Positions 10,359 to 63,622 of a DNA stretch of 64,000 nucleotides are shown piece by piece. The notes below the pieces were generated by a model. That model ran no database searches and was not told where the DNA came from. It was given only the letters and a program-made list of their open reading frames with translations. Location of the stretch: contig JBBQDH010000002.1 of the NCBI GenBank assembly GCA_038319515.1, positions 3,318 through 67,317 of the forward strand. Direction: 5' to 3'. Source of the stretch: Bryobacterales bacterium. GTDB lineage: Bacteria > Acidobacteriota > Terriglobia > Bryobacterales > Bryobacteraceae. Position 1 is the stretch's first letter. The number at the start of each line of letters is the position of its first letter. The translations under genes and the position numbers were made by a program.

Positions 10359-10919
10359 CTAGTTTGACGCAGGGTCGCCGATGGAGGCAATTCCGATGTG
10401 CGTGCCGTCGTTCTTCCCGCGAATTCCGACGATCCGTTTGTGGCCGCCTTCCCTGAGCTCAAAGCGGACAGCGCCGTCCCGATCCGTGACCACCAGCCAG
10501 TTGGGCAGCTGGGTCCGGTACCAGGCGAGCACCTTCAAAGGCGAGTCCTGTGTGAACAGTTCCGCGGCTGCGAAGGCGACACTCCTGTCAGCCTTGCCGT
10601 CGGCAGAGACCCACTCGAAAGAGGCAACGCCGGAGTTCTTTTGGCGGGTGGCGCCGGGATAGACGGGCAGCCCGATGGTGGCGGGGTCCAGATCTTCGTG
10701 CGCGCGGATGCTGACGTTGCCGGCGGGTGTGGCAATGGAAAAGTCGGAAAAGTCATCGCCACCATGGCGGTGGGTGGTTTGCACGCGTACATTATTGGCG
10801 ATATAGAAGGCTGTGCCGACCGACACAATCACAATGGACACAAAGATAAAAAGTAGTACGCCCAACACACCGCCCCTGTTTGCGTTCCGGGTGGGTCGCG
10901 AATCTGAAGAAACTCTCAT
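10359..10919 (-). CDS. membrane-anchored hypothetical protein
   Basis: Lower part of the 657-aa track ORF, trimmed to ATG at 10919 (MRVSSDSRPTRNANRGGVLGVLLFIFVSIVIVSVGTAFYI...). One TM anchor and a soluble domain. Ends 5 nt upstream of the zinc-ribbon gene. The rest of the track ORF is antisense to the dehydrogenase gene. Confidence 0.6.
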   Translation of the reverse strand: MRVSSDSRPTRNANRGGVLGVLLFIFVSIVIVSVGTAFYIANNVRVQTTHRHGGDDFSDFSIATPAGNVSIRAHEDLDPATIGLPVYPGATRQKNSGVASFEWVSADGKADRSVAFAAAELFTQDSPLKVLAWYRTQLPNWLVVTDRDGAVRFELREGGHKRIVGIRGKNDGTHIGIASIGDPASN

Positions 10920-10994
10920 GAGCCGACCTCCAAAATTATTGTTACGCAATTCCGGCGGCGCGGGTTCGGGCAGGTTTGTGATAGCTTGCTCCTG

Positions 10995-11963
10995 ATGGAC
11001 CAAATTACCGTTGTTGTTCTGGGCGACCCGGCAGAGCCCGAGTTGCAGAAGCTGGAGGCGCTGCGCCCCGGGGTGAATTTCACCATATCGAAGACCGCCG
11101 ACGGACTGGGCGATGCGGTGCGGGATGCGCGCGTGCTGTTCACCACCATGGGCAACCGGAAGGAGGTCGGGCTGGTGCTGGAACGCGGGGCGAAGCTCGA
11201 ATGGATCCAGTCGCGCAGTGCGGGCCTGGACGGATTTCTGAGCCCGGAATTGATTGAGAGTCCGATTCCGCTCACCAATGGCAGCGGTGTGTTCAGCCAG
11301 TCTCTGGGAGAGTTCGTGTTGTTTGGCGCGTTGTATTTCGCGAAGGATATTCCGCGCATGCTGCGGGCTAAAGCGGCGCACAAGTGGGATGTCTTCGACG
11401 TGTGTGAGCTGAGCACGCAGACCATGGGCATTGTGGGCCATGGGGACATTGGGCGCGCCGCGGCGAAACGCGCGAAGGCGATGGGGATGAAGGTGCTGGC
11501 GTTGCGCCGTACTGTTACGCCGCGCCCGGGCGATGAGGATGTGGATCGCGTTTACGCAACGGCGGAGTTGCATGACATGCTGCCGGAGTGCGACTACGTG
11601 GTGGCCGCGGCCCCGTTGACGCCTGCGACGAAGCATATGCTGAGCACGGCGGAGTTTGGCCGGATGAAGCCTTCGGCGGTGGTGATGAATGTGGGGCGCG
11701 GTCCCGTGATTGACGAGGCTGCCCTGGCGGAAGCCTTGCGGAGCGGCGTGATTCGCGGTGCGGTGCTGGATGTGTTTGAAGTGGAACCGCTGGGCGGGGA
11801 CAGCCCGCTTTGGGATATGGACAATGTGCTGATTTCGGCGCATACGGCCGACCACACGCAAACGTGGCTCGAAGATTCGGTTGATTTTTTTATGGCGCAG
11901 TTTGCGCGTTGGCGCAGCGGGGAAGCGCTGCAGAATCTGGTGGATAAGCGCGCGGGGTATTAA
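10995..11963 (+). CDS. D-2-hydroxyacid dehydrogenase family (NAD-binding) protein
   Basis: MDQITVVVLGD... Rossmann motif GIVGHGDIGRAAAKRAKAMGMKV, plus VMNVGRGPVIDEAAL and LDVFEVEPL...NVLISAHTA, the catalytic pattern of D-isomer-specific 2-hydroxyacid dehydrogenases. Confidence 0.85.
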   Translation: MDQITVVVLGDPAEPELQKLEALRPGVNFTISKTADGLGDAVRDARVLFTTMGNRKEVGLVLERGAKLEWIQSRSAGLDGFLSPELIESPIPLTNGSGVFSQSLGEFVLFGALYFAKDIPRMLRAKAAHKWDVFDVCELSTQTMGIVGHGDIGRAAAKRAKAMGMKVLALRRTVTPRPGDEDVDRVYATAELHDMLPECDYVVAAAPLTPATKHMLSTAEFGRMKPSAVVMNVGRGPVIDEAALAEALRSGVIRGAVLDVFEVEPLGGDSPLWDMDNVLISAHTADHTQTWLEDSVDFFMAQFARWRSGEALQNLVDKRAGY

Positions 11964-12000
11964 GGCCGGCGACAGGATCGCCGCCGCCACGCGCCACGCT

Positions 12001-14409
12001 TTACGCGACCAACAGCAGTTTCTTGCTGCGCTTCGCATCGTACATGCGCTCGTCGGCTTTTTCGAGCAGTGCTTCGGCGTCGGAACCGTCGTCCGGATAG
12101 CGGGAGACGCCGGCGCTGATGGTGATGCGTGCAGGGCACTGCGATTCGGCGGGCAGGTTCCTGCCGATCTGGTCGAGGCGGGCGAGAATTTCCGGCAGGC
12201 TTTGGGTGGCATCCGGCATGATGAGCACGAACTCATCACCGCCCAGCCGTGCCGCGAAATCCCCGGCTCGGCAACTGCGGCGCAGAGCGCGACCAACGCA
12301 TTCCAGGATGCGGTTTCCGGCAATGTGACCATACTCGTCGTTGGCTTTCTTGAAGCCGTCCAGGTCCATCACGACAACGGTGAAATTCCCCTCCCGCCGC
12401 GCCGTGTTTGAGACCTCGGCTTCCAGGTGCCTGAAGAGCGAACGCGCATTATGGAGGCCGGTCAGTTCATCCGTATCGGCCGCGCTGTTGGCGCGTTCAA
12501 AGCGCACGGAGTTTTGAATCGCGATACCTGCCTTCGGCGCAATGGCAAGCAGAATTCGTCGGTCATCCTGACTGAAAGCCTCAGCCTTCAGGTGGTAGAG
12601 GGTGAGCACGGCGATGACGCCGTCACGGCCGCGAATCGGGACTGCAATAGCGGACCGGAGCGGCGTGACCATGCGGGGGTCATTGAGATAGCCGGGCTCC
12701 ACGGCAGGGTTGCCGTTGACGACAGGCAGATCGTTTTCCGCCACCCAGCCGGACAACCCCTGGCCCAGGGGAATTTCCAGAGAGCTGAGGAGCCTGAAGC
12801 TCTCACCCTTGACGAACTTTGGCACCAGTTTGTCGCCATCCAGCAGGTAGACGGCAATGGCATCATGGTTTACAATTTTGCCCAGGCGCACGGCAAGCAG
12901 GGCGAGGGTTTCTTCAAGGCTGAGTGAACTACCCAGATCGTTGGTGAGTTCCAGGAGCAACTGAAACTCGCGGCGTGCGCCGGAGATTGCCAGGCTGAAG
13001 TGTGCGGTGGCGGAGGGCGCACTCACCGGAGCGGATTCCGCGAAGCCGGTGGCGGGAGCCAGCCCGCGCTCCACTTTCACGTTGGAAGACAGCTTCACAT
13101 AATCCGCGGTCTCATCCCTTGCCTTCTGTTCGAGTTCCCGGAAACGGCGGTCGAGAATTGCCACAACAATGGGGTCGAACGCCTTGCCTGCTTCATCGCG
13201 GATGATCTGCATGGCGGCTTCCAGCGGCATGGCGGTGCGGTACTGGCGATTGGACGCAAGCGCATCCAGGCAATCCACGGCGGAGAGAATACGGGCTCCG
13301 ATGGGGATTTGCTCACCGATCAGGCCATCGGGATAGCCGGTGCCATCGTACTTTTCGTGGTGCGAGCGAACGATGGGGACGACGGGATAAGGGAAGTGAA
13401 CGCGTTCCAGAATTTCCGCGCCCACCACCGGATGGACCTTCATCTTTTCGAACTCATCCGGCGTCAGCTTGCCGGGTTTGGAGATGATGTACTCGGGCAC
13501 GGCGAGTTTGCCCACGTCATGCAGAAGAGCGGCGGCTTCGAGCGCCTGCATCTCAAGAGCGGACAGGTGCAGCTCTTTGCCGATTTCTGAAGCGTAGACC
13601 TGCACGCGGCGCAGGTGAGCGGCCGTGGTGTCGTCCTTGGCGTCAATCGCCAGGGCGAGGGTTTCGATGGTCCGAAGATGCAGTTGAGCCATCTCTGTAA
13701 TGTGCTTGCGCTGCTCTTCAAACCGGCCGAGGTAGACGCTGTAAGAACGGTAGACCAGGTAGAGCGGCGGAATCGCCACAATGAGCGCAGGCCAGCCCAT
13801 GTAGCGGTTCATGAAGTGCAGGCCGCCCGCAATCAGGCCGCCCACCAGGTACTGCGGGGAGGTCCACAGATAAGAGTCCCGCCAAATTGTCAGCAGGCCC
13901 GTGGATGAGGTCACGCTGATGATGCCGGCGACCGTGACGGTGTTCATGATGAAGTACAGCAGCGACGCCATGAGCAGGCTGAGCGCACCGGTGGGGTCGA
14001 CGTAGTTCAGCGTCTGCGACTGGAGCGCAAGGTCCGCAGCCATCACGGGAAAGGCCATGGCGAACATGTTGAACAGTAAGTGGTACCACTTCGGCCGCTG
14101 ATCCGCATGAATGAAGCACTGGCCGAGTGCGCTGGCCACGCCAACGATCATGCCGGATGCCCGCCCCAGATTCATCAGTGCCGCGAGGATCACAACATAG
14201 TTCATGGAAAGAGTAACGAAGATGCCGGGCAGGCGAATTTTGAGTCGGGACGCGAGGATTGCCGCGACGATGTAAAAGAACGTGCGACGCACGTTGTCAA
14301 TCGCCAGATCAGTGGAAGCGATAGAAGTGATGCTGAACCATGCCCCGCCCAGAACAATCAGAGCCCAGTAAAAATGGGCTTTGCGGGGCATTTGAATAAA
14401 TTCCGTCAT
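12001..14409 (-). CDS. membrane-bound HD-GYP / GAF / GGDEF multidomain c-di-GMP signalling protein
   Basis: Start chosen at ATG 14409, 7 nt after GGAGGT. N-terminal polytopic membrane domain. HD-GYP motifs LLHDVGK and HHEKYDGTGYPDGL. GAF-like segment. GGDEF domain with RLGGDEFVLI and an RAGD (RxxD) I-site five residues upstream. Confidence 0.9.
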   Translation of the reverse strand: MTEFIQMPRKAHFYWALIVLGGAWFSITSIASTDLAIDNVRRTFFYIVAAILASRLKIRLPGIFVTLSMNYVVILAALMNLGRASGMIVGVASALGQCFIHADQRPKWYHLLFNMFAMAFPVMAADLALQSQTLNYVDPTGALSLLMASLLYFIMNTVTVAGIISVTSSTGLLTIWRDSYLWTSPQYLVGGLIAGGLHFMNRYMGWPALIVAIPPLYLVYRSYSVYLGRFEEQRKHITEMAQLHLRTIETLALAIDAKDDTTAAHLRRVQVYASEIGKELHLSALEMQALEAAALLHDVGKLAVPEYIISKPGKLTPDEFEKMKVHPVVGAEILERVHFPYPVVPIVRSHHEKYDGTGYPDGLIGEQIPIGARILSAVDCLDALASNRQYRTAMPLEAAMQIIRDEAGKAFDPIVVAILDRRFRELEQKARDETADYVKLSSNVKVERGLAPATGFAESAPVSAPSATAHFSLAISGARREFQLLLELTNDLGSSLSLEETLALLAVRLGKIVNHDAIAVYLLDGDKLVPKFVKGESFRLLSSLEIPLGQGLSGWVAENDLPVVNGNPAVEPGYLNDPRMVTPLRSAIAVPIRGRDGVIAVLTLYHLKAEAFSQDDRRILLAIAPKAGIAIQNSVRFERANSAADTDELTGLHNARSLFRHLEAEVSNTARREGNFTVVVMDLDGFKKANDEYGHIAGNRILECVGRALRRSCRAGDFAARLGGDEFVLIMPDATQSLPEILARLDQIGRNLPAESQCPARITISAGVSRYPDDGSDAEALLEKADERMYDAKRSKKLLLVA

Positions 14410-43873: not shown

Positions 43874-44000
43874 TCGCTTGTAAGTTTATGACAGTGCGCC
43901 CTGGCGGCGAATGCCATCGACCATTCCGGGAAGTCGCGTCCTTCCGCCGGGCGGCTCTGCAGCACCGTCACGTCACTATGCCGCGGAAATCGGGAAACTG

Positions 44001-45938
44001 CTACTCGTTTATCTTCGCGGCAATTTCCGCGAGGATGATGGCCGTAAATTCCGAGGTCGGAATCGCGCCCAGATCGCCGCGTTTGCGATGCCGCACGGCC
44101 ACCTGACCTGCTTCGGCCTCGCGCCCGCCAATCACCAGCATGTACGGAACCTTCTGCATTTGCGCATCGCGAATCTTCAGATTCACCTTTTCATTGCGGT
44201 CATCCACGGTCACGCGTACGCCGTGAGCCTTCAGGCTCTCCGCAATCTCACTCGCGTAGGCCTGCTGTTTATCGGTAATGGGCAGCACTGTCACCTGCAC
44301 CGGGGCCAGCCAGGTGGGGAACGCGCCGGCGTAGTGCTCGATCAGAATGCCGAAGAACCGTTCCACCGATCCAAACAGCGCGCGGTGCACCATCAGCGGG
44401 CGATGCTTCTTGCCGTCTTCCGCGATGTATTCCAGTTCAAAACGGCGCGGCAGCGTGAAATCGAACTGCACGGTGGAAAGCTGCCAGAGGCGCCCGATGG
44501 CATCGACCAGCTTTATGTCGATCTTCGGACCGTAGAACGCCGCTTCATCGGGAATCACCTTTGCGTCGATTCCCAGGCGGTCGCAGGCCTTGCGAAGCGC
44601 GCCTTCCGCGAGCGCCCAGTTTTCCGGTTCGCCATCATATTTACCGCTCACGCCGCCGTCCCAGGTGGAGATCTCGGCCTTGTAGGAATGGAAACCGAAA
44701 GTCTTCAGTGTGTCGGTGGCGAAGTCGAGACAGGCGACAATTTCGTCTTCGATCTGTTCCGGGGTACAGAAGATGTGGGCGTCATCCTGTGTGAAACCGC
44801 GCACGCGAAGCAGGCCGTGCATGGTGCCGGAGCGCTCATAGCGATACACGGTACCCAGTTCGCCCAGACGCACGGGCAGGTCCCGATAGCTGTGCTGTTT
44901 GTCACGGTAGATCAGGATGTGCCCCGGGCAGTTCATGGGCTTCAGCTGATACTCGGCGTCGTCCAGCTCCATCGGCTTGAACATGTTTTCCGAGTAGAAC
45001 CCGGCATGGCCGCTGACCTTCCAGAGGTCGCGCCGCATCACGTGCGGGGTGTAGACCAGATAGTAGCCACGCTTAAGATAGGCGTCGCGCATCCAGTCTT
45101 CCAGCTGTTTGCGGATGATGCCGCCCTTTGGATGGAAGAAGATCAGGCCGGGGCCGGCAAGTTCCTGAATGCTGAACAGGTCCAGTTCCTGGCCGAGTTT
45201 GCGGTGGTCGCGCTTCTTTGCTTCTTCCAGCTTGTTGAGGTACTCGTCCAGTTCCTTCTTGCTGAACCAGGCAGTGCCGTAAATACGCTGCAGTTGCTTG
45301 TTCTTTTCGTCGCCCTTCCAGTAGGCACCGGCGATGCTGAGCAGCTTAAAAGCTTTGATCCGGGAAGTATCCGGCACATGCGGCCCGCGGCAGAAATCAA
45401 TGAAGTGGGGCCCGAGCGTGTATTCAGAAAAGATGGCATCCGCGCGCTCTTCAATGAGTTCCACCTTCATCGGCTCATTCATGGCGCGATACTTCGCCAG
45501 ACCTTCCGGTTTGGCAATCAGGCTGCGGTCGAAGGCCAGGTTTTTCGCCTGCAACTCCCACATTTTGGCCTCGATCTTTTCGAGGTCTTGCGGGGTGAAG
45601 GGCTCCGGGCGGTCAAAGTCGTAGTAGAAGCCGGTATCGATGGGCGGCCCGATCCCGAGTTTGGTTTCCGGGAACAGTTCCAGCACGGCGGCTGCGCACA
45701 GGTGTGCGGTCGAGTGGCGATAGACTTCCAGCGCTTCTGCATCTTTATTGGTAAGAATCTGCAGGGTGGAATCCGCTTCAAAGGGGCGCTTCAGGTCGTA
45801 CAGCTTACCGTTGACTTTGGCGACAATGGCGGCGTCAGCAAGACGGGGGCTGATTTTCTGCGCGATATCGAAGGCGCTGGTTCCTGCCGGAACCTGCTGT
45901 ACACTTCCGTCCGGCAAGGTGATTTGGAGGCTGCTCAT
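44001..45938 (-). CDS. thrS: threonine--tRNA ligase
   Basis: ORF trimmed to MSSLQITLPDGS (TGS domain). HSTAHLCAAAV, class II motifs FRxE-like (RVRGFTQDDAHIF) and GAFPTWLAPVQV, and an anticodon-binding C-terminus. Confidence 0.95.
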   Translation of the reverse strand: MSSLQITLPDGSVQQVPAGTSAFDIAQKISPRLADAAIVAKVNGKLYDLKRPFEADSTLQILTNKDAEALEVYRHSTAHLCAAAVLELFPETKLGIGPPIDTGFYYDFDRPEPFTPQDLEKIEAKMWELQAKNLAFDRSLIAKPEGLAKYRAMNEPMKVELIEERADAIFSEYTLGPHFIDFCRGPHVPDTSRIKAFKLLSIAGAYWKGDEKNKQLQRIYGTAWFSKKELDEYLNKLEEAKKRDHRKLGQELDLFSIQELAGPGLIFFHPKGGIIRKQLEDWMRDAYLKRGYYLVYTPHVMRRDLWKVSGHAGFYSENMFKPMELDDAEYQLKPMNCPGHILIYRDKQHSYRDLPVRLGELGTVYRYERSGTMHGLLRVRGFTQDDAHIFCTPEQIEDEIVACLDFATDTLKTFGFHSYKAEISTWDGGVSGKYDGEPENWALAEGALRKACDRLGIDAKVIPDEAAFYGPKIDIKLVDAIGRLWQLSTVQFDFTLPRRFELEYIAEDGKKHRPLMVHRALFGSVERFFGILIEHYAGAFPTWLAPVQVTVLPITDKQQAYASEIAESLKAHGVRVTVDDRNEKVNLKIRDAQMQKVPYMLVIGGREAEAGQVAVRHRKRGDLGAIPTSEFTAIILAEIAAKINE

Positions 45939-46121
45939 AGTTTTACGGGGAATTTTCAGGTTATCACCCGCCGAAGCAGTTTCTTTGGTTAACGGTCCCG
46001 CTGGTACTGCCACTGTTGATTTGGCTGCAACAGATTAGTTACCCTGATAAGGATCAAAAGAGACCGCGCTTGCCACGAGGTCCCCCTCACTTTCAGCTCT
46101 GCTGCCCCGGAGAATTTTTGC

Positions 46122-58756: not shown

Positions 58757-59428
58757 TCAGGGTTTGGCGGGCGGAGGCATGACGCGAAAACCATACTCGT
58801 GCAGCAGCTTCCCGCCGTTGTCGTAAAGCCTGAGAAAGTAGACGCCTGCCGTAACCGGCTTGTTGATTCTCGCCGAGAGGACCTGCGAGGCGGCTGGTTG
58901 CCCGGTCCAGACTGGTGAACCCGTGTCGCTGACCAGCTCCAGCCGAAACGGCGCGCCGGTTTCCGGGGCGTCGCCCAGTTGCAGTTCCAGTTCACGGGCC
59001 GGAGGCACGGACGGCATTTCTCCGCGCATGGCCGTCAATTGCAGAGACGCGACAGCCGGGAGCGTCATGCTCCCGTCGGTCTTGCTGACCTGCCAGACGC
59101 CGACCGAGAGGACCACCGCCGCAAAGGCGCCAGCCAGGGCCATTTGAGGCCTCCAGTTGCCCGGAGAGAAGACGGACCATGTCGATTGAAGCCGGTCCAG
59201 CCACGATGGTGCCGCGTCAGCGGCGGGGACGGGGTGCTGTTTCAGCACATCCCGCACGGTGAAAGCGAACGCCGCAACCTGCTCAAGCTTTTCACGGCAG
59301 GCCTCGCACACCATTAGATGTTCTTCCAGCGGAATGATCTCTGTTTCAGACAGCCGATCCAGAGCGTAGAGCTCCAGCTGGTCGTCGGAACCATGAGGCG
59401 ATCCGTCCAGCGCTAAATGATTCTGCAC
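58757..59428 (-). CDS. anti-sigma factor with HxxxCxxC (ZAS-type) motif, single-pass membrane protein
   Basis: 223 aa. EEHLMVCEAC (H-x3-C-x2-C), TM helix MALAGAFAAVVLSVGVWQV and a ~110-aa extracytoplasmic domain. Starts 46 nt after the ECF sigma gene. Confidence 0.75.
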   Translation of the reverse strand: MQNHLALDGSPHGSDDQLELYALDRLSETEIIPLEEHLMVCEACREKLEQVAAFAFTVRDVLKQHPVPAADAAPSWLDRLQSTWSVFSPGNWRPQMALAGAFAAVVLSVGVWQVSKTDGSMTLPAVASLQLTAMRGEMPSVPPARELELQLGDAPETGAPFRLELVSDTGSPVWTGQPAASQVLSARINKPVTAGVYFLRLYDNGGKLLHEYGFRVMPPPAKP

Positions 59429-59474
59429 AAAATGCTCCTGTATGCAGAGTAAGTGTGACGCCGAAACTTATTTC

Positions 59475-60206
59475 TCAGATTTTTTCGGATCTCGCTTTTT
59501 CGGGTTTGATGGAGCCGCCCAGGCCGGCGGCGGTCAAACGCTTTCCCAGTTCGCCAAAGCGGGCTTTGGCCCGGGATTTCAGCAACCGGAACTGGTTATA
59601 ACTGAGGCTCATCTCCTCGCAGATCTGCTCCTGCGGCTGCTCCTGCACATAAAACCGGTCGAGTATTTCGCGATCCCGGCGGGATATCCCGTTCAGAACG
59701 CGCCGGGCGATGTCGGTCCGCTGTTGTTGCAGAAGACTGTGTTCGGGGTCGTCTTTCCAGTCGGTGAGGGTAAAAAGGGTCTCTTCGTAGTCCACCTGGT
59801 TGCGGCGACGGCTTACGGCCAGATCGATAGTGGCGGCAATCTGGCGTTTCACAACGGTACGGACGAAGCCCATCAGGCGGGCCGGGTCGCGAAGTTCACC
59901 TTGCTGAATCGCCTGGGCGACGATCACGAAGCAATCGTGAACCCTGTCGTCCAACTCGTCCGCACCCAGATTCCGCAGCAGAAAGTAGCGAATGCCTTTG
60001 GCGAATATCGCGTACAGTTCTTCCATGGCGGCGGGGTCGCGATCATGGATTCGTTCGACAAGCCGGGTCCAGTCCTGGATGTGGAACTCATCCGGCGGCA
60101 CGCCTGCGGTACCTGAGGTCTGTTCCTCCGCCACTGGAACTGATGTTAGCAACGTCACGTTTACCGTTGTCGGACGAACGTCCTTCTGAGGACCAGATCC
60201 CGGCAT
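59475..60206 (-). CDS. ECF sigma factor with N- and C-terminal extensions
   Basis: ORF 59475..60443 trimmed to ATG 60206; earlier in-frame starts would overlap the CHAT gene. Region 2 AAMEELYAIFAKGIRYFLLRNLG...HDCFVIVAQAI...FVRTVVKRQI. Region 4 RDREILDRFYVQEQPQEQICEEMSLSYNQFRLLKSRAKARF. Confidence 0.85.
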   Translation of the reverse strand: MPGSGPQKDVRPTTVNVTLLTSVPVAEEQTSGTAGVPPDEFHIQDWTRLVERIHDRDPAAMEELYAIFAKGIRYFLLRNLGADELDDRVHDCFVIVAQAIQQGELRDPARLMGFVRTVVKRQIAATIDLAVSRRRNQVDYEETLFTLTDWKDDPEHSLLQQQRTDIARRVLNGISRRDREILDRFYVQEQPQEQICEEMSLSYNQFRLLKSRAKARFGELGKRLTAAGLGGSIKPEKARSEKI

Positions 60207-60256
60207 ATTCTGTTCCAAAAAGGGACTCGTTAAGGTCGCGGTCACAAAGGTCGCGG

Positions 60257-62782
60257 TCACAGCATTCTGCTCAAAAGGAAGTATCCTGCCCATTGTTGGG
60301 GGTGTTGCCGGGCGCCCGGCATGTTCAGGGCTGCCAGTTGCGCATGCCGGAGGGCTCCTGCGGTTCCCCCGTCGGGAGAAGTCTTCAGGGAGCGATAGAA
60401 ATCGGTCAGCAGGGACTGCGCGGAATCGTCGGGGATATCCCAATGAGTCGCCATCACGGACATGGCTCCGGCGCCGATCCAGGCGCGCGTCAGGCCCATC
60501 AGGCCGACACTTGGCAGCGCTTCACCCTGCGCGGAATGGCAACCGTTCATCACCACCAGCTTGCAGTTGACGGCTCTTGCCACAATTTCTTTCGGGCCCA
60601 GAAGGCCCACGGCTCCGCCCGAGTCGAGACTGAGGGCGATCAGGCCGGACTGGAATTCGTCCTTCGCCGGGATAACGTGAGTCGCGAAGTGGATGATCGC
60701 AGGATTGGATTGCAACGCGGGTCGCACGCTGTCGATCTGTGCTTCGGGGCCGGTAAGCAGCCTGCGCGCCAATGGATTCCAGGCTTGTGAACAAGTCTCC
60801 AGTTCCGCGGCGGTATTCGGCAGTCTTGCAAGCGAGAGTCCAGCGGCGCCCTTTGCTCCCCGGTAACGGCTGTCCGCAGCGTTATAGACGGGATCGCCAA
60901 TACCCAGAAATGTACCCGTGGCCGGGATGGCATCCCTGGTGGCCAGCAGCGCGCCAGGAATGGTTTCCAGATCCGCTTTTTCGATCAGGTATACGGGACC
61001 GTGCGAGTCTTCGCCGACGGTCAAAGCGGCGAAGGGGAGTTCATACAGGGGTCCGTCCAGCTCCAGGCGCCAGTGCTTCCGGTCGAGAAAGGCGGCGGGT
61101 ATGGAACCAAACAGGTCCCGATACAAGCCTGCGCCGATGGATGAGGAGGGCTTGCCATCACGGAGGGCGGCGGCAAACTTCCGCACAGCGGTCTGGATTT
61201 GTTTTGCCGGGGCAAGGGGGAAGGCGACCACATGCCTGCGGTCAACCGCCCAGACCCATGAGCTGTGGGCCGAAATATGGAAGCTAAAAAGTGCCGTATC
61301 ATCCGGCAGCACCCGCCGGATATGACTCAGAGGCGGCTCCCGCGATTCCGTCGCCGGTCCGGCTGCATTCGCTTCATACCGGGCCAGTTCCACGCGAAGT
61401 GCTGTGGTCTGCGCATCCGCTTCTGAGGAACACGACCGCTTTTCGGTCGCCGGCGGCGACAGAGGACAGGGTTCCTCCACTCTTGCTGTAGCCACCGACC
61501 GACGGGCTTCTGAAGCGCCCCGAGCTACGGCGCTTCGCTCCAGCGTCTGGTATCGCGCCAGGCGTTCCCAGTATTCTGTCGGAAGCCTGGAGCGCCAGTC
61601 GTGGGTGCCCGGCAAAAGCGCGCGCAGGCTCCAGAGACGGTCCTGTTCGGCGGCATCGAATGTTTCCTGAAGGATCGAATTGTCGCCTGTTTTTTGCGCC
61701 AGCCGGTTACCCGCATCGACAAGCCCCTCGAAAACCATGCTCAGGCCGCTTTCGAATGCAACCCGGTCGCGGTCGGCAGGGACCATGTCGACCCGCATTT
61801 GCGACGCGATACGGCGCGAGTCCCGAAAATCGGCAAGGGCTCCTGTCAGGTCACCGCAGTCGAGTCGAAACTGCCCGCGATCAGCCAGAATCATCCAACG
61901 CGGAGTGCGACCCTGTTGTGCGGACAGCGCGGCGTCAAAGTATTCAGCGGCGGCGACCGGGTCGTTCTGTTTTGCCTTGAGTTTGGCAAGGCCCGAGAAA
62001 ATATTTGCGGAGGCGTTTAGTTTGTGCGCACGGACCAGCCGGAGCCCTTCATTGAGAGCCTGCTCCGCCTGGGGGAGGCGATTCGCTCTCAGGTAGGCCG
62101 TACCGAGCAGGCCGTAAATCATGGCTGTCTCCGTATAATTTTTTTCGCTTGTCAACTCAGCCAGAGCCATCCGGAAGTACGGCTCGGCCTCATCCATCCG
62201 CCCCAGCTTCGCCAGTGAAACTGCCAGTTGAAACCGCAACTTCGAGTGTGCCTCCGGCTCGAAATCCACTGCATTGCGGGCCAGTCCTTCTTTCGCGACG
62301 CGCATGGCCTGCTCATATTGCCCGATTTGCACGTAGAGGCTGGCAACATTATTGAGAGTCGCAGCCAGGGCTTTTCCGTCGTGGGCGCTCTCAGCGAGTT
62401 TTCGCGCCCGGGCGAACTCGTCAAACGCGGTCCGGAACTGCGCGGTGAGGATTGAGCAGGCACCAGCGCTGTTCCAGTCTCTTGCAGCTTCTCCTGGTAC
62501 TCCGGTTTGTTCAGCACGCCCGGCCGCGCGCAGGAAGACAGTCCGGGCATCTCCGTACCGGCCTGCCAAAAAACTGACCATAGCCTCATTCTTCAAGGCG
62601 ATGAGTTCTTTGGGGATAGCGGGCGCGGAGTTAGCAGAAGTTGCTGCGATTCGCGGTGAACCAGTCAGCAGAAGCGCCATCAGAGTCGAACCAATGATTG
62701 CGCTAACGGTCAGCGGATTTGCTGGCACCAGTACCTCAGGTAAGACCGGTGGTAGCCACAGGATTTCCTTATGGACTACCAC
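60257..62782 (-). CDS. TPR-repeat + CHAT (caspase-like peptidase) domain protein, probable N-terminal signal/anchor
   Basis: 841 aa, GTG start. Hydrophobic N-terminus (LTVSAIIGSTLMALLLTG). Several TPR-like units (GRYGDARTVFLRA..., IGQYEQAMRVAKEG..., LGRMDEAEPYFRMA...). C-terminal CHAT with His context IIHFATHV and Cys context VVMNGCHSAQG. Confidence 0.85.
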   Translation of the reverse strand: MVVHKEILWLPPVLPEVLVPANPLTVSAIIGSTLMALLLTGSPRIAATSANSAPAIPKELIALKNEAMVSFLAGRYGDARTVFLRAAGRAEQTGVPGEAARDWNSAGACSILTAQFRTAFDEFARARKLAESAHDGKALAATLNNVASLYVQIGQYEQAMRVAKEGLARNAVDFEPEAHSKLRFQLAVSLAKLGRMDEAEPYFRMALAELTSEKNYTETAMIYGLLGTAYLRANRLPQAEQALNEGLRLVRAHKLNASANIFSGLAKLKAKQNDPVAAAEYFDAALSAQQGRTPRWMILADRGQFRLDCGDLTGALADFRDSRRIASQMRVDMVPADRDRVAFESGLSMVFEGLVDAGNRLAQKTGDNSILQETFDAAEQDRLWSLRALLPGTHDWRSRLPTEYWERLARYQTLERSAVARGASEARRSVATARVEEPCPLSPPATEKRSCSSEADAQTTALRVELARYEANAAGPATESREPPLSHIRRVLPDDTALFSFHISAHSSWVWAVDRRHVVAFPLAPAKQIQTAVRKFAAALRDGKPSSSIGAGLYRDLFGSIPAAFLDRKHWRLELDGPLYELPFAALTVGEDSHGPVYLIEKADLETIPGALLATRDAIPATGTFLGIGDPVYNAADSRYRGAKGAAGLSLARLPNTAAELETCSQAWNPLARRLLTGPEAQIDSVRPALQSNPAIIHFATHVIPAKDEFQSGLIALSLDSGGAVGLLGPKEIVARAVNCKLVVMNGCHSAQGEALPSVGLMGLTRAWIGAGAMSVMATHWDIPDDSAQSLLTDFYRSLKTSPDGGTAGALRHAQLAALNMPGARQHPQQWAGYFLLSRML

Positions 62783-63085
62783 CAGAGTCTACCAGAAATT
62801 GAGCCGCGACTGGCGGCAACCGGGAAGTGCCGGTTCTGAAAGCCATGTGCTGCGCCATCCCATGCGCAGAGGGAATTACAGGGCGACTACCAGCCCAGAA
62901 GGAACATGAAGAACTGCCCAACGATAACGATCGGATCTCCGCCCATTGTGTTTTCCTTTCAATGCATTTCGTCTGCCGCACTGCGGCTCGCGACCAAGGT
63001 TTCCCACGATGCCGTTTCCGGGTGGTGCAAGCGACGTCCGTAAAGTGCTGAATCTAATAGGGAAAAATATGCGAAAATAACGTGA

Positions 63086-63622
63086 ATGAAATTTGCTCTA
63101 CTCGCAGCCGGCTTTTTTACACTCACTTTGAGCGCCCAGGAACCCCGAATTCCGCGCAAAGCGTCCGATATTGGAATCCAAATCGGAACAGAGAAGTACC
63201 TGTGGCTGAGCGAGCAGAGCGGGAAGACCGTAGTGGTGGCCTTCATTCTGACCACTTGCCCCCACTGCCAGTTCACTGTCGGACTACTCAGCAAAATCCA
63301 GAAAGACTATGCAGACAAAGGAGTTCTGGTGATGGCCACCGCCATTGAGCCCATGTCTTCACTCCACATTCCGGACTTTGTGAAGACCTTCAAACCGCAA
63401 TTCCCAATTGGGTACAACGAGCAAAGCTACGTGCAGAAGTTCCTCGGCCGCGCCGATAATGACCCCATGTTCATGCCGCAACTGGTTTTTGTGGACCGAA
63501 ATGGGATTATCCAGACGCAGTATGCGGGCGATGATCCGGCCCTGGCGAAAGACATTCAGGAAAAGAGCCTGCGCGATGCGGTGGAAAAAGCTTTGAAAGC
63601 GGGCGCCGCGAAAAAACCGTGA
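63086..63622 (+). CDS. secreted TlpA-like thioredoxin-fold thiol-disulfide oxidoreductase
   Basis: 178 aa. Signal peptide MKFALLAAGFFTLTLSAQ and a CxxC motif FILTTCPHCQF. Divergent from the CHAT operon. Confidence 0.8.
   Translation: MKFALLAAGFFTLTLSAQEPRIPRKASDIGIQIGTEKYLWLSEQSGKTVVVAFILTTCPHCQFTVGLLSKIQKDYADKGVLVMATAIEPMSSLHIPDFVKTFKPQFPIGYNEQSYVQKFLGRADNDPMFMPQLVFVDRNGIIQTQYAGDDPALAKDIQEKSLRDAVEKALKAGAAKKP

Follow-up and report, generated by a model that had tools for sequence, protein, structure and literature searches.

A conserved cassette of soil Acidobacteria, probably for envelope signalling, links genes for a TPR-CHAT caspase-like protease, a divergent ECF sigma factor and a membrane anti-sigma factor

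We found a conserved cassette of three genes, probably for envelope signalling, on the minus strand of the window, the 64,000-nucleotide stretch of DNA analysed here, which stems from a member of the Bryobacterales, soil Acidobacteria. The cassette encodes a TPR-CHAT caspase-like protease (60257-62728), a divergent ECF-type sigma factor (59475-60206, or to 60260) and a membrane anti-sigma factor (58757-59428), and the three reading frames agree in identity and position with an earlier note on this DNA. The gaps counted there, 50 nt between CHAT and sigma and 46 nt between sigma and anti-sigma, are correct for a sigma gene that starts with the ATG at 60206 (243 aa); the database sigma protein P0130 (261 aa) implies a GTG start at 60260 and a 4-nt overlap with the CHAT stop codon. 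A 4-nt overlap of CHAT stop and sigma start was also observed in two loci (L082, L088), in which the CHAT gene is probably translationally coupled to the sigma gene, and a search for terminator-like sites between the cassette genes found none. The surrounding genes have housekeeping functions (a divergent redoxin, penicillin amidase and arginyl-transferase), an rpoD-like gene also lies inside the window, the chromosomal context is ordinary and the synteny around the cassette is vertically inherited.

The linkage of the three genes extends to other genomes. Among non-redundant metagenome loci, the same-strand order CHAT, sigma, anti-sigma is kept for the sigma gene in 57 of 58 loci and for the anti-sigma gene in 46 of 47, and on these counts the arrangement is far beyond chance. 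It persists at CHAT identities as low as 29% (L081), and it was recovered when anti-sigma homologs (L086) or sigma homologs (L088, L089) served as the starting point.

The longest reading frame of the CHAT gene begins at 62782 (841 aa), where the gene had been assumed to start; the likelier start is the GTG at 62728, which yields 823 aa, the same length as the database protein P0001. Residue numbers of the CHAT protein are counted here from the 841-aa frame. The protein combines an N-terminal export or anchor helix (aa 23-39, 62666-62716), a TPR solenoid (aa 58-390, 61613-62611; Pfam TPR families span aa 139-317) and a CHAT domain (aa 484-841, 60260-61333; Pfam CHAT at aa 563-836, E=1.8e-43). 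Both proposed catalytic contexts, HFATH (H698-H702) and NGCHS (N746-S750), are present, and H698, H702, G747, C748 and S750 are invariant in an alignment of 40 CHAT homologs. The intact dyad of His702 (codon 60677-60679) and Cys748 (codon 60539-60541) lines up in a profile match with H862/C907, the catalytic residues of Myxococcus DdvA, and its invariance together with this alignment supports an active enzyme. The best Foldseek matches to the AlphaFold model (pLDDT 82.4) were Csx29/craspase (8eey_B, 2.8e-14), DdvA (8rot, 1.5e-12, TMq 0.46) and separase. A sequence profile of the CHAT domain had DdvA as its only significant match in the PDB (E=2.5e-4) and did not match Csx29 at sequence level.

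Alignment and model reveal a single conserved hydrophobic helix at the N-terminus, with a basic n-region in most CHAT homologs, and in distant orthologs lipobox-like ends (VIFSAC, VLLSGC, VLLSC) replace the hydrophobic segment. The CHAT protein is therefore probably exported, with its status as signal peptide or anchor assessed by hydropathy and by eye only; from the GTG start, the protein of the window carries no basic residue ahead of the hydrophobic segment.

The sigma factor is a divergent member of the ECF type. It matches NCBIfam TIGR02937 (sigma70-ECF) with 44.2 bits (cutoff 42.9), falls below the cutoff of 25.7 for Pfam Sigma70_r4_2 (23 bits) and gave no match in a search for Pfam Sigma70_r2; its best PDB sequence relative is R. 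sphaeroides RpoE (2q1z, E=2.9e-5). We retrieved 5,714 sigma homologs, of which the best 120 are at least 62% identical. In the alignment, the conserved core begins with 'DWTRLVERI' and is preceded by a variable N-terminal extension of 30-45 aa, which is always present, poorly conserved in sequence and tolerant of repeat insertions (L014). The extension described earlier is real and makes the protein about 33 aa longer than R. sphaeroides RpoE.

The anti-sigma factor (223 aa) is a single-pass protein of the zinc-finger, ChrR-like HHCC type, and it matches zf-HC2 with 22.3 bits (cutoff 22.2). Alignments show that H12 and the H37-x3-C41-x2-C44 motif (59297-59320) are invariant, and the spacing of the zinc ligands, H-x24-H-x3-C-x2-C, presumably matches that of ChrR. 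In the AlphaFold model (pLDDT 84.1), one transmembrane segment (aa 95-116, 59081-59146) is followed by a linker of 9 residues and a confident C-terminal Ig-like beta-sandwich (aa 126-216, 58781-59053), which corresponds to the extracytoplasmic domain expected from the sequence. Foldseek with this ectodomain returned generic Ig/FN3/CopC-like folds only. The predicted periplasmic domain carries invariant residues, among them the R135-G136 loop (59021-59026), whose (T/M)RG is retained even in a distant clade.

The region ahead of the CHAT gene is also conserved, and its elements lie on the minus strand as well. A putative regulatory region at 62975-63087, common to the cassette and the divergent redoxin gene, contains the boxes ATTCACG / T-rich / GATTCAGCACTTTA (63041-63087) as well as a short hairpin, GCCGC-agt-GCGGC (62975-62987), with the SD-like GAAAGGAAAA after it; the block order GTCACA-N5-TCACr, TTTTCAr-N-CTT, hairpin and SD is the same in 31 non-redundant loci. 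A small leader ORF follows at 62887-62946 (MGGDPIVIVGQFFMFLLGW and stop, 19 aa). By pattern search, leader peptides of this type, 8-28 aa long with the core [D/G]P[I/V][I/V]I[I/F], occur in 32 of the 42 loci with enough upstream sequence (just 8 aa in L056), and differences between loci fall mostly on third codon positions. Next come three short GC-rich hairpins (62803-62869), CTGCGC...GCGCAG at 62850-62869, AACCGG...CCGGTT at 62818-62835 and GCCGC...GCGGC at 62803-62817. According to RNAalifold and explicit pair counts over 20 loci, pairing reaches 96-97% in helices 1 and 3, which show compensatory changes, and 67.5% in the weaker helix 2, where part of the loss comes from a register shift in the alignment; Rfam contains no family that matches this leader. 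The box TTCTGGTAGACT at 62786-62797, the sole close match within the window, has the invariant positions TnTGnTAnnnT (alignment A2), which include TGnTAnnnT, the extended -10 pattern of promoters read by housekeeping sigma factors, and may represent a promoter. A search for an ECF-type promoter motif identified none. Finally, a stem-loop in the CHAT 5' leader (TGGTGGTAG ... CTACCACCG, 62747-62784) has nine pairs, six of them changed on both sides, with 90.6% of cells paired by pair counts and RNAalifold, and is followed by GAGG at 62734-62737 and the GTG start. The CHAT gene, described before as the first of the operon, does precede sigma and anti-sigma genes, but it is not strictly first, because the leader ORF and the covarying hairpin leader come before it.

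The best explanation for this cassette, to which we assign about an even chance, is that the exported TPR-CHAT protein activates the sigma factor by a site-1 cut of the anti-sigma factor. Export would place the protease and the Ig-like domain on the same side of the membrane, and the topologies of the two proteins, a hydrophobic segment or lipobox in one and a single transmembrane segment with a beta-sandwich in the other, support this pairing. A protease that is probably exported and is encoded with a sigma factor and a membrane anti-sigma factor would thus probably cut the latter from outside; conserved linkage, compatible topologies and the aligned dyad make such a role, the best reading of the locus, a reasonable leading hypothesis. 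The earlier note had named three observations that would refute its idea (no linkage in other genomes, topologies that keep the proteins apart, a dyad that does not align), and none of them was made. The parts, their linkage and conservation, the intact dyad and the fold are observed, and the compatible topology is supported by prediction; we infer the cleavage, its substrate, site and cue as follows. At rest, the sigma factor would be held at the membrane by the zinc-bound cytoplasmic domain of the anti-sigma factor. On the periplasmic side, the TPR-CHAT protein, soluble or membrane-anchored and possibly a lipoprotein in distant relatives, could be activated when its TPR solenoid binds a periplasmic cue, which is probably a protein or peptide, and might then cut either the small Ig-like domain or the loop that follows the first strand of this domain. 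A candidate cleavage site is the invariant Arg135-Gly136; R135 might also be kept only for the structure of the beta-sandwich. Such a cut would open the anti-sigma factor to intramembrane (RseP-type) and cytoplasmic proteolysis and thereby release the sigma factor. The cassette would in effect split the Myxococcus DdvA anti-sigma factor into two polypeptides, and the DdvA fusion offers a Rosetta-stone argument that CHAT acts on the anti-sigma factor.

On gene order alone, an output role fits equally well, and synteny data cannot tell input from output. The CHAT protein might not activate the sigma factor but process other envelope proteins in the periplasm or at the surface, as a protease whose gene shares a transcript with the sigma/anti-sigma pair through autoregulation of the operon. 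Genes conserved next to ECF pairs often belong to the regulon, the CHAT and further protease genes in the context of ECF54 were described without proof of a regulatory role (PMC8999054), and the generic ectodomain of the anti-sigma factor has no known protease-recognition feature. We rather doubt this possibility: the CHAT gene precedes the sigma gene, whose start it overlaps in two loci, the tight coupling is maintained down to about 30% identity, the box before CHAT resembles a housekeeping extended -10 and not an ECF promoter, and DdvA, the nearest solved relative by sequence, uses such a domain as the input part of its anti-sigma factor.

It seems unlikely that the CHAT protein acts as a co-sensor or shield which, in a securin-like or RseB-like manner, binds the Ig-like domain and sterically blocks intramembrane proteolysis, with dissociation or CHAT self-cleavage as the signal. 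The bulky TPR-CHAT part does shield DdvA from RseP, and taking it away is enough for DdvA to be degraded (PMC11506125); separase-type enzymes are kept in check by pseudosubstrate inhibitors, and a partner could supply bulk to a small ectodomain that only some 9 residues separate from the membrane. The strict invariance of the His/Cys dyad and its flanking motifs, however, argues for catalysis on some substrate. A cytoplasmic CHAT protein that, like Csx29 acting on Csx30 in the cytoplasmic craspase, processes the ever-present extension of the sigma factor (then a pro-sigma) or the part of the anti-sigma factor inside the cell is very unlikely in view of the conserved hydrophobic N-terminus and the lipobox-like signals of distant orthologs, and the unconserved, insertion-tolerant extension is unlike a defined cleavage site. 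The suggested connection to anti-phage defence, with CHAT as effector or sensor, is hardly credible: CHAT proteases are known from type III-E and type III-B CRISPR systems and CBASS, and DdvA controls a defence island, but a PADLOC search with the three proteins gave no relevant match, the surrounding genes have housekeeping roles and vertically inherited synteny, and neither cas nor CBASS genes turned up among the annotated loci.

Canonical regulated intramembrane proteolysis of ECF anti-sigma factors is exemplified by DegS/RseP-RseA-RpoE of E. coli and PrsW/RasP-RsiW of B. subtilis. Under the site-1-protease reading, the cassette shares with these systems a single-pass anti-sigma factor with a small ectodomain, whose cut is the proposed trigger. 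Its candidate protease has a caspase fold and is encoded within the same cassette, whereas the known site-1 proteases of ECF anti-sigma factors are, to our knowledge, serine proteases or metalloproteases whose genes lie at other places in the genome. In the ECF11-type RpoE-ChrR pair of R. sphaeroides, whose RpoE is the best PDB sequence relative of the cassette sigma factor as described above, the ZAS protein ChrR is soluble with a cupin sensor domain; the cassette anti-sigma factor instead spans the membrane and ends in an Ig-like domain, and its sigma factor has the additional N-terminal extension. In the actinobacterial ECF54 group, CHAT, subtilase and carboxypeptidase genes lie in the genetic context (PMC8999054). 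There, too, an ECF sigma factor has a conserved CHAT-domain gene nearby and proteolytic control was proposed, but ECF54 was described without an anti-sigma factor (PMC8999054), in contrast to the clear ZAS protein of the acidobacterial cassette.

The split arrangement of separate CHAT protease, sigma and anti-sigma factor was absent from the literature that we searched; related arrangements are known, and, contrary to what the earlier note had supposed, the signalling logic is not distinct, because DdvA fuses the same parts (PMC11506125) and Csx29 cleaves a sigma inhibitor (PMC10028731). In type III-E systems, the TPR-CHAT protease Csx29, the best structural match to our CHAT model, is encoded alongside an ECF-like CASP-sigma and its inhibitor Csx30, and cleavage of Csx30 relieves the inhibition (PMC10028731). 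Craspase (Cas7-11-Csx29) differs in being cytoplasmic, RNA-guided and Cas7-11-bound, Csx30 does not belong to the ZAS type and is not a membrane protein, and the cassette has no cas genes. Myxococcus DdvA is a ZAS anti-sigma factor fused to a periplasmic TPR-CHAT part and was proposed to be its own site-1 protease; without TPR-CHAT it becomes an RseP substrate, and its self-cleavage is unproven, as repression persisted in the H862A and C907A variants and cleavage was not observed (PMC11506125). In the cassette, TPR-CHAT is predicted to be a separate exported protein, the anti-sigma factor has only an Ig-like ectodomain of about 90 aa, the zinc ligands are HHCC and not CHCC, and the context is housekeeping in Acidobacteriota and not a CBASS/CRISPR island in Myxococcota. 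The sigma factor and the anti-sigma N-terminus have no detectable sequence relation to DdvS and DdvA, so that the resemblance may be convergent. Both systems unite a zinc-finger anti-sigma domain, a single transmembrane segment, a cognate ECF sigma factor and a TPR-CHAT whose His-Cys dyad is intact and which is periplasmic in DdvA and probably so in the cassette, and a site-1-protease-like role is proposed in both.

We found that three genes on the minus strand of the window, encoding a TPR-CHAT protease, an ECF-type sigma factor and a membrane anti-sigma factor, are arranged as the earlier note had described and form a cassette whose order is conserved in related loci. Metagenome contigs were pattern-scanned with a 40-sequence CHAT alignment, each of the 80 loci returned was searched for relatives of the sigma and anti-sigma factors of the window, and near-identical loci were collapsed. 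The sigma gene lies directly after the CHAT gene on the same strand in 57 of the 58 non-redundant loci with at least 800 nt available downstream, and the anti-sigma gene comes next in 46 of the 47 with at least 1,600 nt. Two loci were flagged as exceptions by the script, L010, in which an overlapping sigma gene is nevertheless present, and L002, in which a 750-nt insert precedes the anti-sigma gene; the sole locus truly devoid of both partners is L022. The CHAT homolog at L022:5788-8400 (47% identity), which also lacks the conserved upstream leader, is probably a relocated paralog. The gene order is kept down to 29% CHAT identity (L081), and an anti-sigma relative from an exhaustive profile search (L086) and two sigma homologs on long contigs (L088, L089) likewise sit in loci of this organization. 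Compared with the window, median identity is highest for sigma (64%), followed by CHAT (50%) and anti-sigma (41%). The anti-sigma family comprises 304 clusters (50% identity) at E ≤ 1e-30, nearly all full length with about 200 aa, and the source labels of homologs, where given, are Bryobacteraceae, Bryobacterales, Terriglobia or Acidobacteriota. A single-protein scan of genome contigs gave only an unrelated TPR match. In locus L074 (647-1987), one continuous ORF spans sigma and anti-sigma; these are either naturally fused, or the ORF is an artefact of assembly or of a frameshift.

In the window, the three consecutive ORFs are present where they had been placed: TPR-CHAT at 60257-62782 at its longest, sigma at 59475-60443 at its longest and anti-sigma at 58757-59428. 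The gaps of 50 nt and 46 nt described before were reproduced if the sigma gene starts with the ATG at 60206. However, the database version of sigma (P0130) has 261 aa, a length that points to a GTG start at 60260 and thus to a 4-nt overlap with the CHAT stop codon; in L082 and L088, too, CHAT and sigma as called share 4 nt. For CHAT, translation most likely begins with the GTG at 62728, and the resulting 823 aa agree with the length of the database protein P0001 (residue numbers used here follow the 841-aa longest ORF). A window scan gave no terminator-like sites between the three cassette genes. By eye, a tandem 15-nt duplication (GTGACCGCGACCTTT / GTGACCGCGACCTTA) is seen at 60230-60260 on the minus strand, covering the CHAT stop and the alternative sigma GTG.

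The first protein combines an N-terminal helical-repeat solenoid with a C-terminal CHAT domain. Pfam placed CHAT (PF12770) at aa 563-836 (E=1.8e-43, 149.5 bits, cutoff 24) and matched aa 139-317 to several TPR families. Its AlphaFold model (pLDDT 82.4, pTM 0.78) consists of an N-terminal helix (aa 23-39) and then a disordered linker, a TPR solenoid that spans roughly aa 58-390, a pair of long helices and an alpha/beta CHAT domain (aa 484-841). H698, H702, G747, C748 and S750 are invariant among 40 homologs of 48-94% identity, and in the model H702 comes after strand 696-700 and C748 after strand 742-745. When the CHAT half was searched as a profile against the PDB, the single significant match was DdvA (E=2.5e-4), the Myxococcus anti-sigma factor fused to TPR-CHAT; in this match, H702 aligns with the catalytic H862 and C748 with C907. 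Invariance, position after the strands and alignment with DdvA thus bear out the catalytic dyad that had been proposed from the His and Cys contexts. Craspase and separase were undetected by this profile search, a single-sequence search of the PDB with the CHAT half gave nothing, and a search with the full-length profile was swamped by TPR proteins. The top 30 Foldseek matches in the PDB were mostly Csx29, DdvA and separase, all with probability 1.0, including Csx29/craspase (8eey_B, 2.8e-14) and DdvA (8rot_A, 1.5e-12, TMq 0.46). Profile and dyad both point to a caspase/hemoglobinase-fold protein with predicted peptidase activity.

The second gene encodes a divergent ECF-type (group IV) sigma factor. 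It matched NCBIfam TIGR02937 marginally (44.2 bits, cutoff 42.9) over aa 139-295 of the 322-aa ORF; with Pfam, Sigma70_r4_2 scored 23.0, below the cutoff of 25.7, and Sigma70_r2 was undetected. The best solved relative in a PDB search is the ECF sigma factor RpoE of R. sphaeroides (2q1z, E=2.9e-5). Precomputed Pfam annotation of the sigma homologs (P0130-P0249 and those in L082, L084, L086 and L088) is empty or restricted to Sigma70_r4_2 and never includes Sigma70_r2, so that Pfam-based surveys of ECF sigma factors could miss this family; the main text of the ECF reclassification paper (Casas-Pastor 2021) does not mention CHAT. The N-terminal extension ascribed to this sigma factor is real: Alignment with RpoE leaves about 33 extra residues, and a poorly conserved segment of 30-45 aa is always present before the conserved core, which starts at 'DW..LV.RI'. 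In L014 and L054, the extension holds about five tandem decapeptide repeats (…APPNNNAERE…), showing that this segment tolerates low-complexity expansion.

The third protein matched zf-HC2 at the Pfam threshold (22.3 bits, cutoff 22.2). Residues H12, H37, C41 and C44 are invariant in the anti-sigma alignment, with the HHCC ligand spacing of the ChrR type. The H-x3-C-x2-C motif and an upstream fourth ligand in an N-terminal helical domain fit the ZAS class, and zinc binding is predicted. In the AlphaFold model (pLDDT 84.1), helices at aa 15-64 are followed by a transmembrane helix (aa 95-116), which a short linker of about 9 residues joins to a 7-stranded beta-sandwich (aa 126-216); for this ectodomain, Foldseek returned generic Ig/FN3/CopC-like folds only. 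The first strand of the sandwich is the conserved 'SLQLTA', and the next loop holds an invariant R135-G136, kept as (T/M)RG in a distant clade.

The strict and tight linkage, the intact dyad, the agreement of the predicted compartments and the natural fusion in DdvA together make a regulatory role of CHAT on the input side of the sigma factor the best reading. In Myxococcus, DdvA without its TPR-CHAT domain becomes exposed to RseP, and self-cleavage has been proposed as its site-1 step (PMC11506125). By analogy, a periplasmic cue would activate the exported TPR-CHAT protein; its cut in the anti-sigma ectodomain, possibly within the R135-G136 loop, would start regulated intramembrane proteolysis and finally sigma release. 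We consider the chances of this mechanism as a whole, in which cleavage, cleavage site and cue are inferred, to be evenly balanced. Somewhat more tentatively, the exported caspase-fold protein could be a dedicated, signal-activated site-1 protease acting in trans on an ECF anti-sigma factor, with its synthesis perhaps also gated by a previously undescribed leader-peptide/hairpin RNA element. If true, such a cut would be a new way to start regulated intramembrane proteolysis. The predicted topology of both proteins is compatible with this process; a Peptidase_M50 gene was seen about 6 kb downstream in L084 only and therefore lies outside the cassette.

Leader elements precede CHAT in nearly all loci, and in one order: boxes and a small hairpin, a small ORF, three hairpins, a further box and a stem-loop. 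In the window, where all of them lie on the minus strand, the first blocks (63041-63087) comprise a direct-repeat-like GTCACA-N5-TCACr, a T-rich stretch and TTTTCAr-N-CTT, conserved in 31 loci; here they overlap the start of a divergent redoxin gene. The small ORF (MGGDPIVIVGQFFMFLLGW, 19 aa, 62887-62946) measures 8-28 aa elsewhere and has the core [D/G]P[I/V][I/V]I[I/F]; searching by pattern located it in 32 of 42 loci, with homologs in L010, L015, L021, L028, L055, L056 and others. Some 160-180 nt separate it from the conserved N-terminal segment of CHAT downstream, and most of its differences among loci are silent and fall on third codon positions. In L056 the ORF has only 8 aa (MGPIIIFM), which suggests a regulatory leader peptide that acts in cis and not a membrane protein. 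Ile-specific attenuation was considered as its mode of action and is weakened by the interchange of I, V, F and L and by GGIGD-type variants.

Three short hairpins (62803-62869) follow, then the conserved box TTCTGGTAGACT (62786-62797) and, just ahead of the ribosome-binding site, a fourth hairpin, the stem-loop at 62747-62784. Across 20 loci, 87.6% of the cells of this four-hairpin structure are paired, compared with 29-42% when partners are slid, and its covariation score of 0.271 (0.06-0.09 slid) was reached by none of 500 shuffles. RNAalifold recovered three of the four hairpins, with compensatory changes at 11 of 20 pairs; hairpin 1 has a conserved loop (ACAGA). The hairpins may act as RNA structures or as DNA palindromes. 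An outer stem, CTCTGG/CCAGAG, which would hide the ribosome-binding site, was rejected, as its pairing is lost in L018, L026 and L032. A search of Rfam gave no match for the leader, and the leader ORF with its covarying hairpins may be a new cis-regulatory element absent from this database. CHAT does lead the three genes, as the earlier note had it with its 'first gene of the operon', a description that is only approximate given the conserved small ORF and leader upstream.

That CHAT is an output of the sigma factor, rather than its regulator, we regard as unlikely. The invariant TnTGnTAnnnT of the box at 62786-62797 holds the extended -10 pattern TGnTAnnnT, which suggests a housekeeping-sigma promoter before the CHAT leader hairpin, not an ECF promoter, and by eye no ECF-type bipartite promoter (AAC...CGT) was seen upstream of the small ORF and CHAT. 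A generic sigma-70 promoter scan found nothing; the box has no second copy in the window. More doubtful still is that CHAT serves as a non-cleaving shield or co-sensor, a role that has to be set beside its invariant dyad. In Myxococcus, DdvA without its TPR-CHAT domain becomes exposed to RseP, and self-cleavage has been proposed as its site-1 step (PMC11506125).

Cleavage of the anti-sigma ectodomain by CHAT, as we prefer to read the cassette, would place the protease in the periplasm. Only its N-terminal segment is hydrophobic (Kyte-Doolittle maximum 1.71); this stretch is conserved as 'AIIGSTLxALxLxGSxR', with Lys/Arg before it in most homologs and small residues after it; in a distant clade (about 32% identity), the N-termini end in the lipobox-like VIFSAC, VLLSGC or VLLSC instead. 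Both features argue for export, as the earlier note had proposed from the hydrophobic N-terminus, and support, by hydropathy and motif only, a soluble, anchored or lipidated periplasmic protein. A cytoplasmic CHAT protein that processes a pro-sigma or anti-sigma factor, for which the sigma N-terminal extension might be cited, is highly improbable beside these N-termini.

A defence module, as the earlier note had considered in view of CHAT effectors, is the least credible reading and was dropped, since PADLOC gave no relevant match for the three cassette proteins, the surrounding chromosome is ordinary (rpoD-like gene, MCP, histidine kinase, TonB-type outer-membrane protein) and the penicillin amidase and arginyl-transferase genes that flank the cassette persist in relatives through common descent. 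The divergent neighbour at 63086-63622 (plus strand) encodes a TlpA-like redoxin with a CPHC motif and, by eye, a probable signal peptide. A link of this redoxin to the periplasmic catalytic cysteine is conceivable; as a partner that reduces this cysteine it was rejected as a core component, because it stands beside the cassette in only 12 of 34 non-redundant loci, a frequency that probably reflects synteny rather than function. Elsewhere in the window, Pfam matched neither of two large ORFs at E ≤ 1e-5, one at 10359-12332 (minus strand, 657 aa) and one at 43911-45992 (plus strand, 693 aa).

ECF sigma factors rank among the major signalling routes of bacteria, yet in most groups it is unknown what triggers inactivation of the anti-sigma factor. 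Control of a sigma factor by CHAT is not in itself the distinct signalling logic that had been claimed, as two such systems are known: Csx29 cleaves Csx30, the inhibitor of the ECF-like CASP-sigma (PMC10028731), and DdvA is a ZAS anti-sigma factor with a periplasmic TPR-CHAT (PMC11506125). In addition, ECF54 has CHAT genes nearby and no anti-sigma factor (PMC8999054). In the texts covered by a full-text literature search on CHAT with ECF or anti-sigma factors, Acidobacteria or the periplasm, nothing beyond these three systems was found. The cassette differs from each of them. Unlike ECF54, it includes a ZAS anti-sigma factor (46 of 47 loci), and its source labels are acidobacterial. The type III-E craspase is associated with Cas7-11/gRAMP, Csx30 and Csx31, an association absent here, where no cas genes were seen in the annotated cassette neighbourhoods and PADLOC matched none of the three proteins. 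Sequence relations of sigma to DdvS, the cognate sigma factor of DdvA, or of anti-sigma to the DdvA N-terminus were not detectable, and the fusion that defines DdvA is missing: The window and 56 (tested for sigma) or 45 (tested for anti-sigma) other non-redundant loci encode TPR-CHAT and anti-sigma separately, and the anti-sigma factor ends after its 90-aa beta-sandwich. So far, only within the cell, for the CRISPR-linked craspase, has a caspase-like protease been shown to act as the inactivating trigger, whereas the site-1 role of DdvA is only proposed, its fusion and its unknown signal having blocked a test. In the cassette, which occurs in hundreds of sequence clusters of a soil phylum that has received little study, protease and proposed substrate are split by nature. 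Since both are separate polypeptides, the mechanism proposed for DdvA would become directly testable in vitro, with cleavage, specificity and activation assayable using two purified ectodomains.
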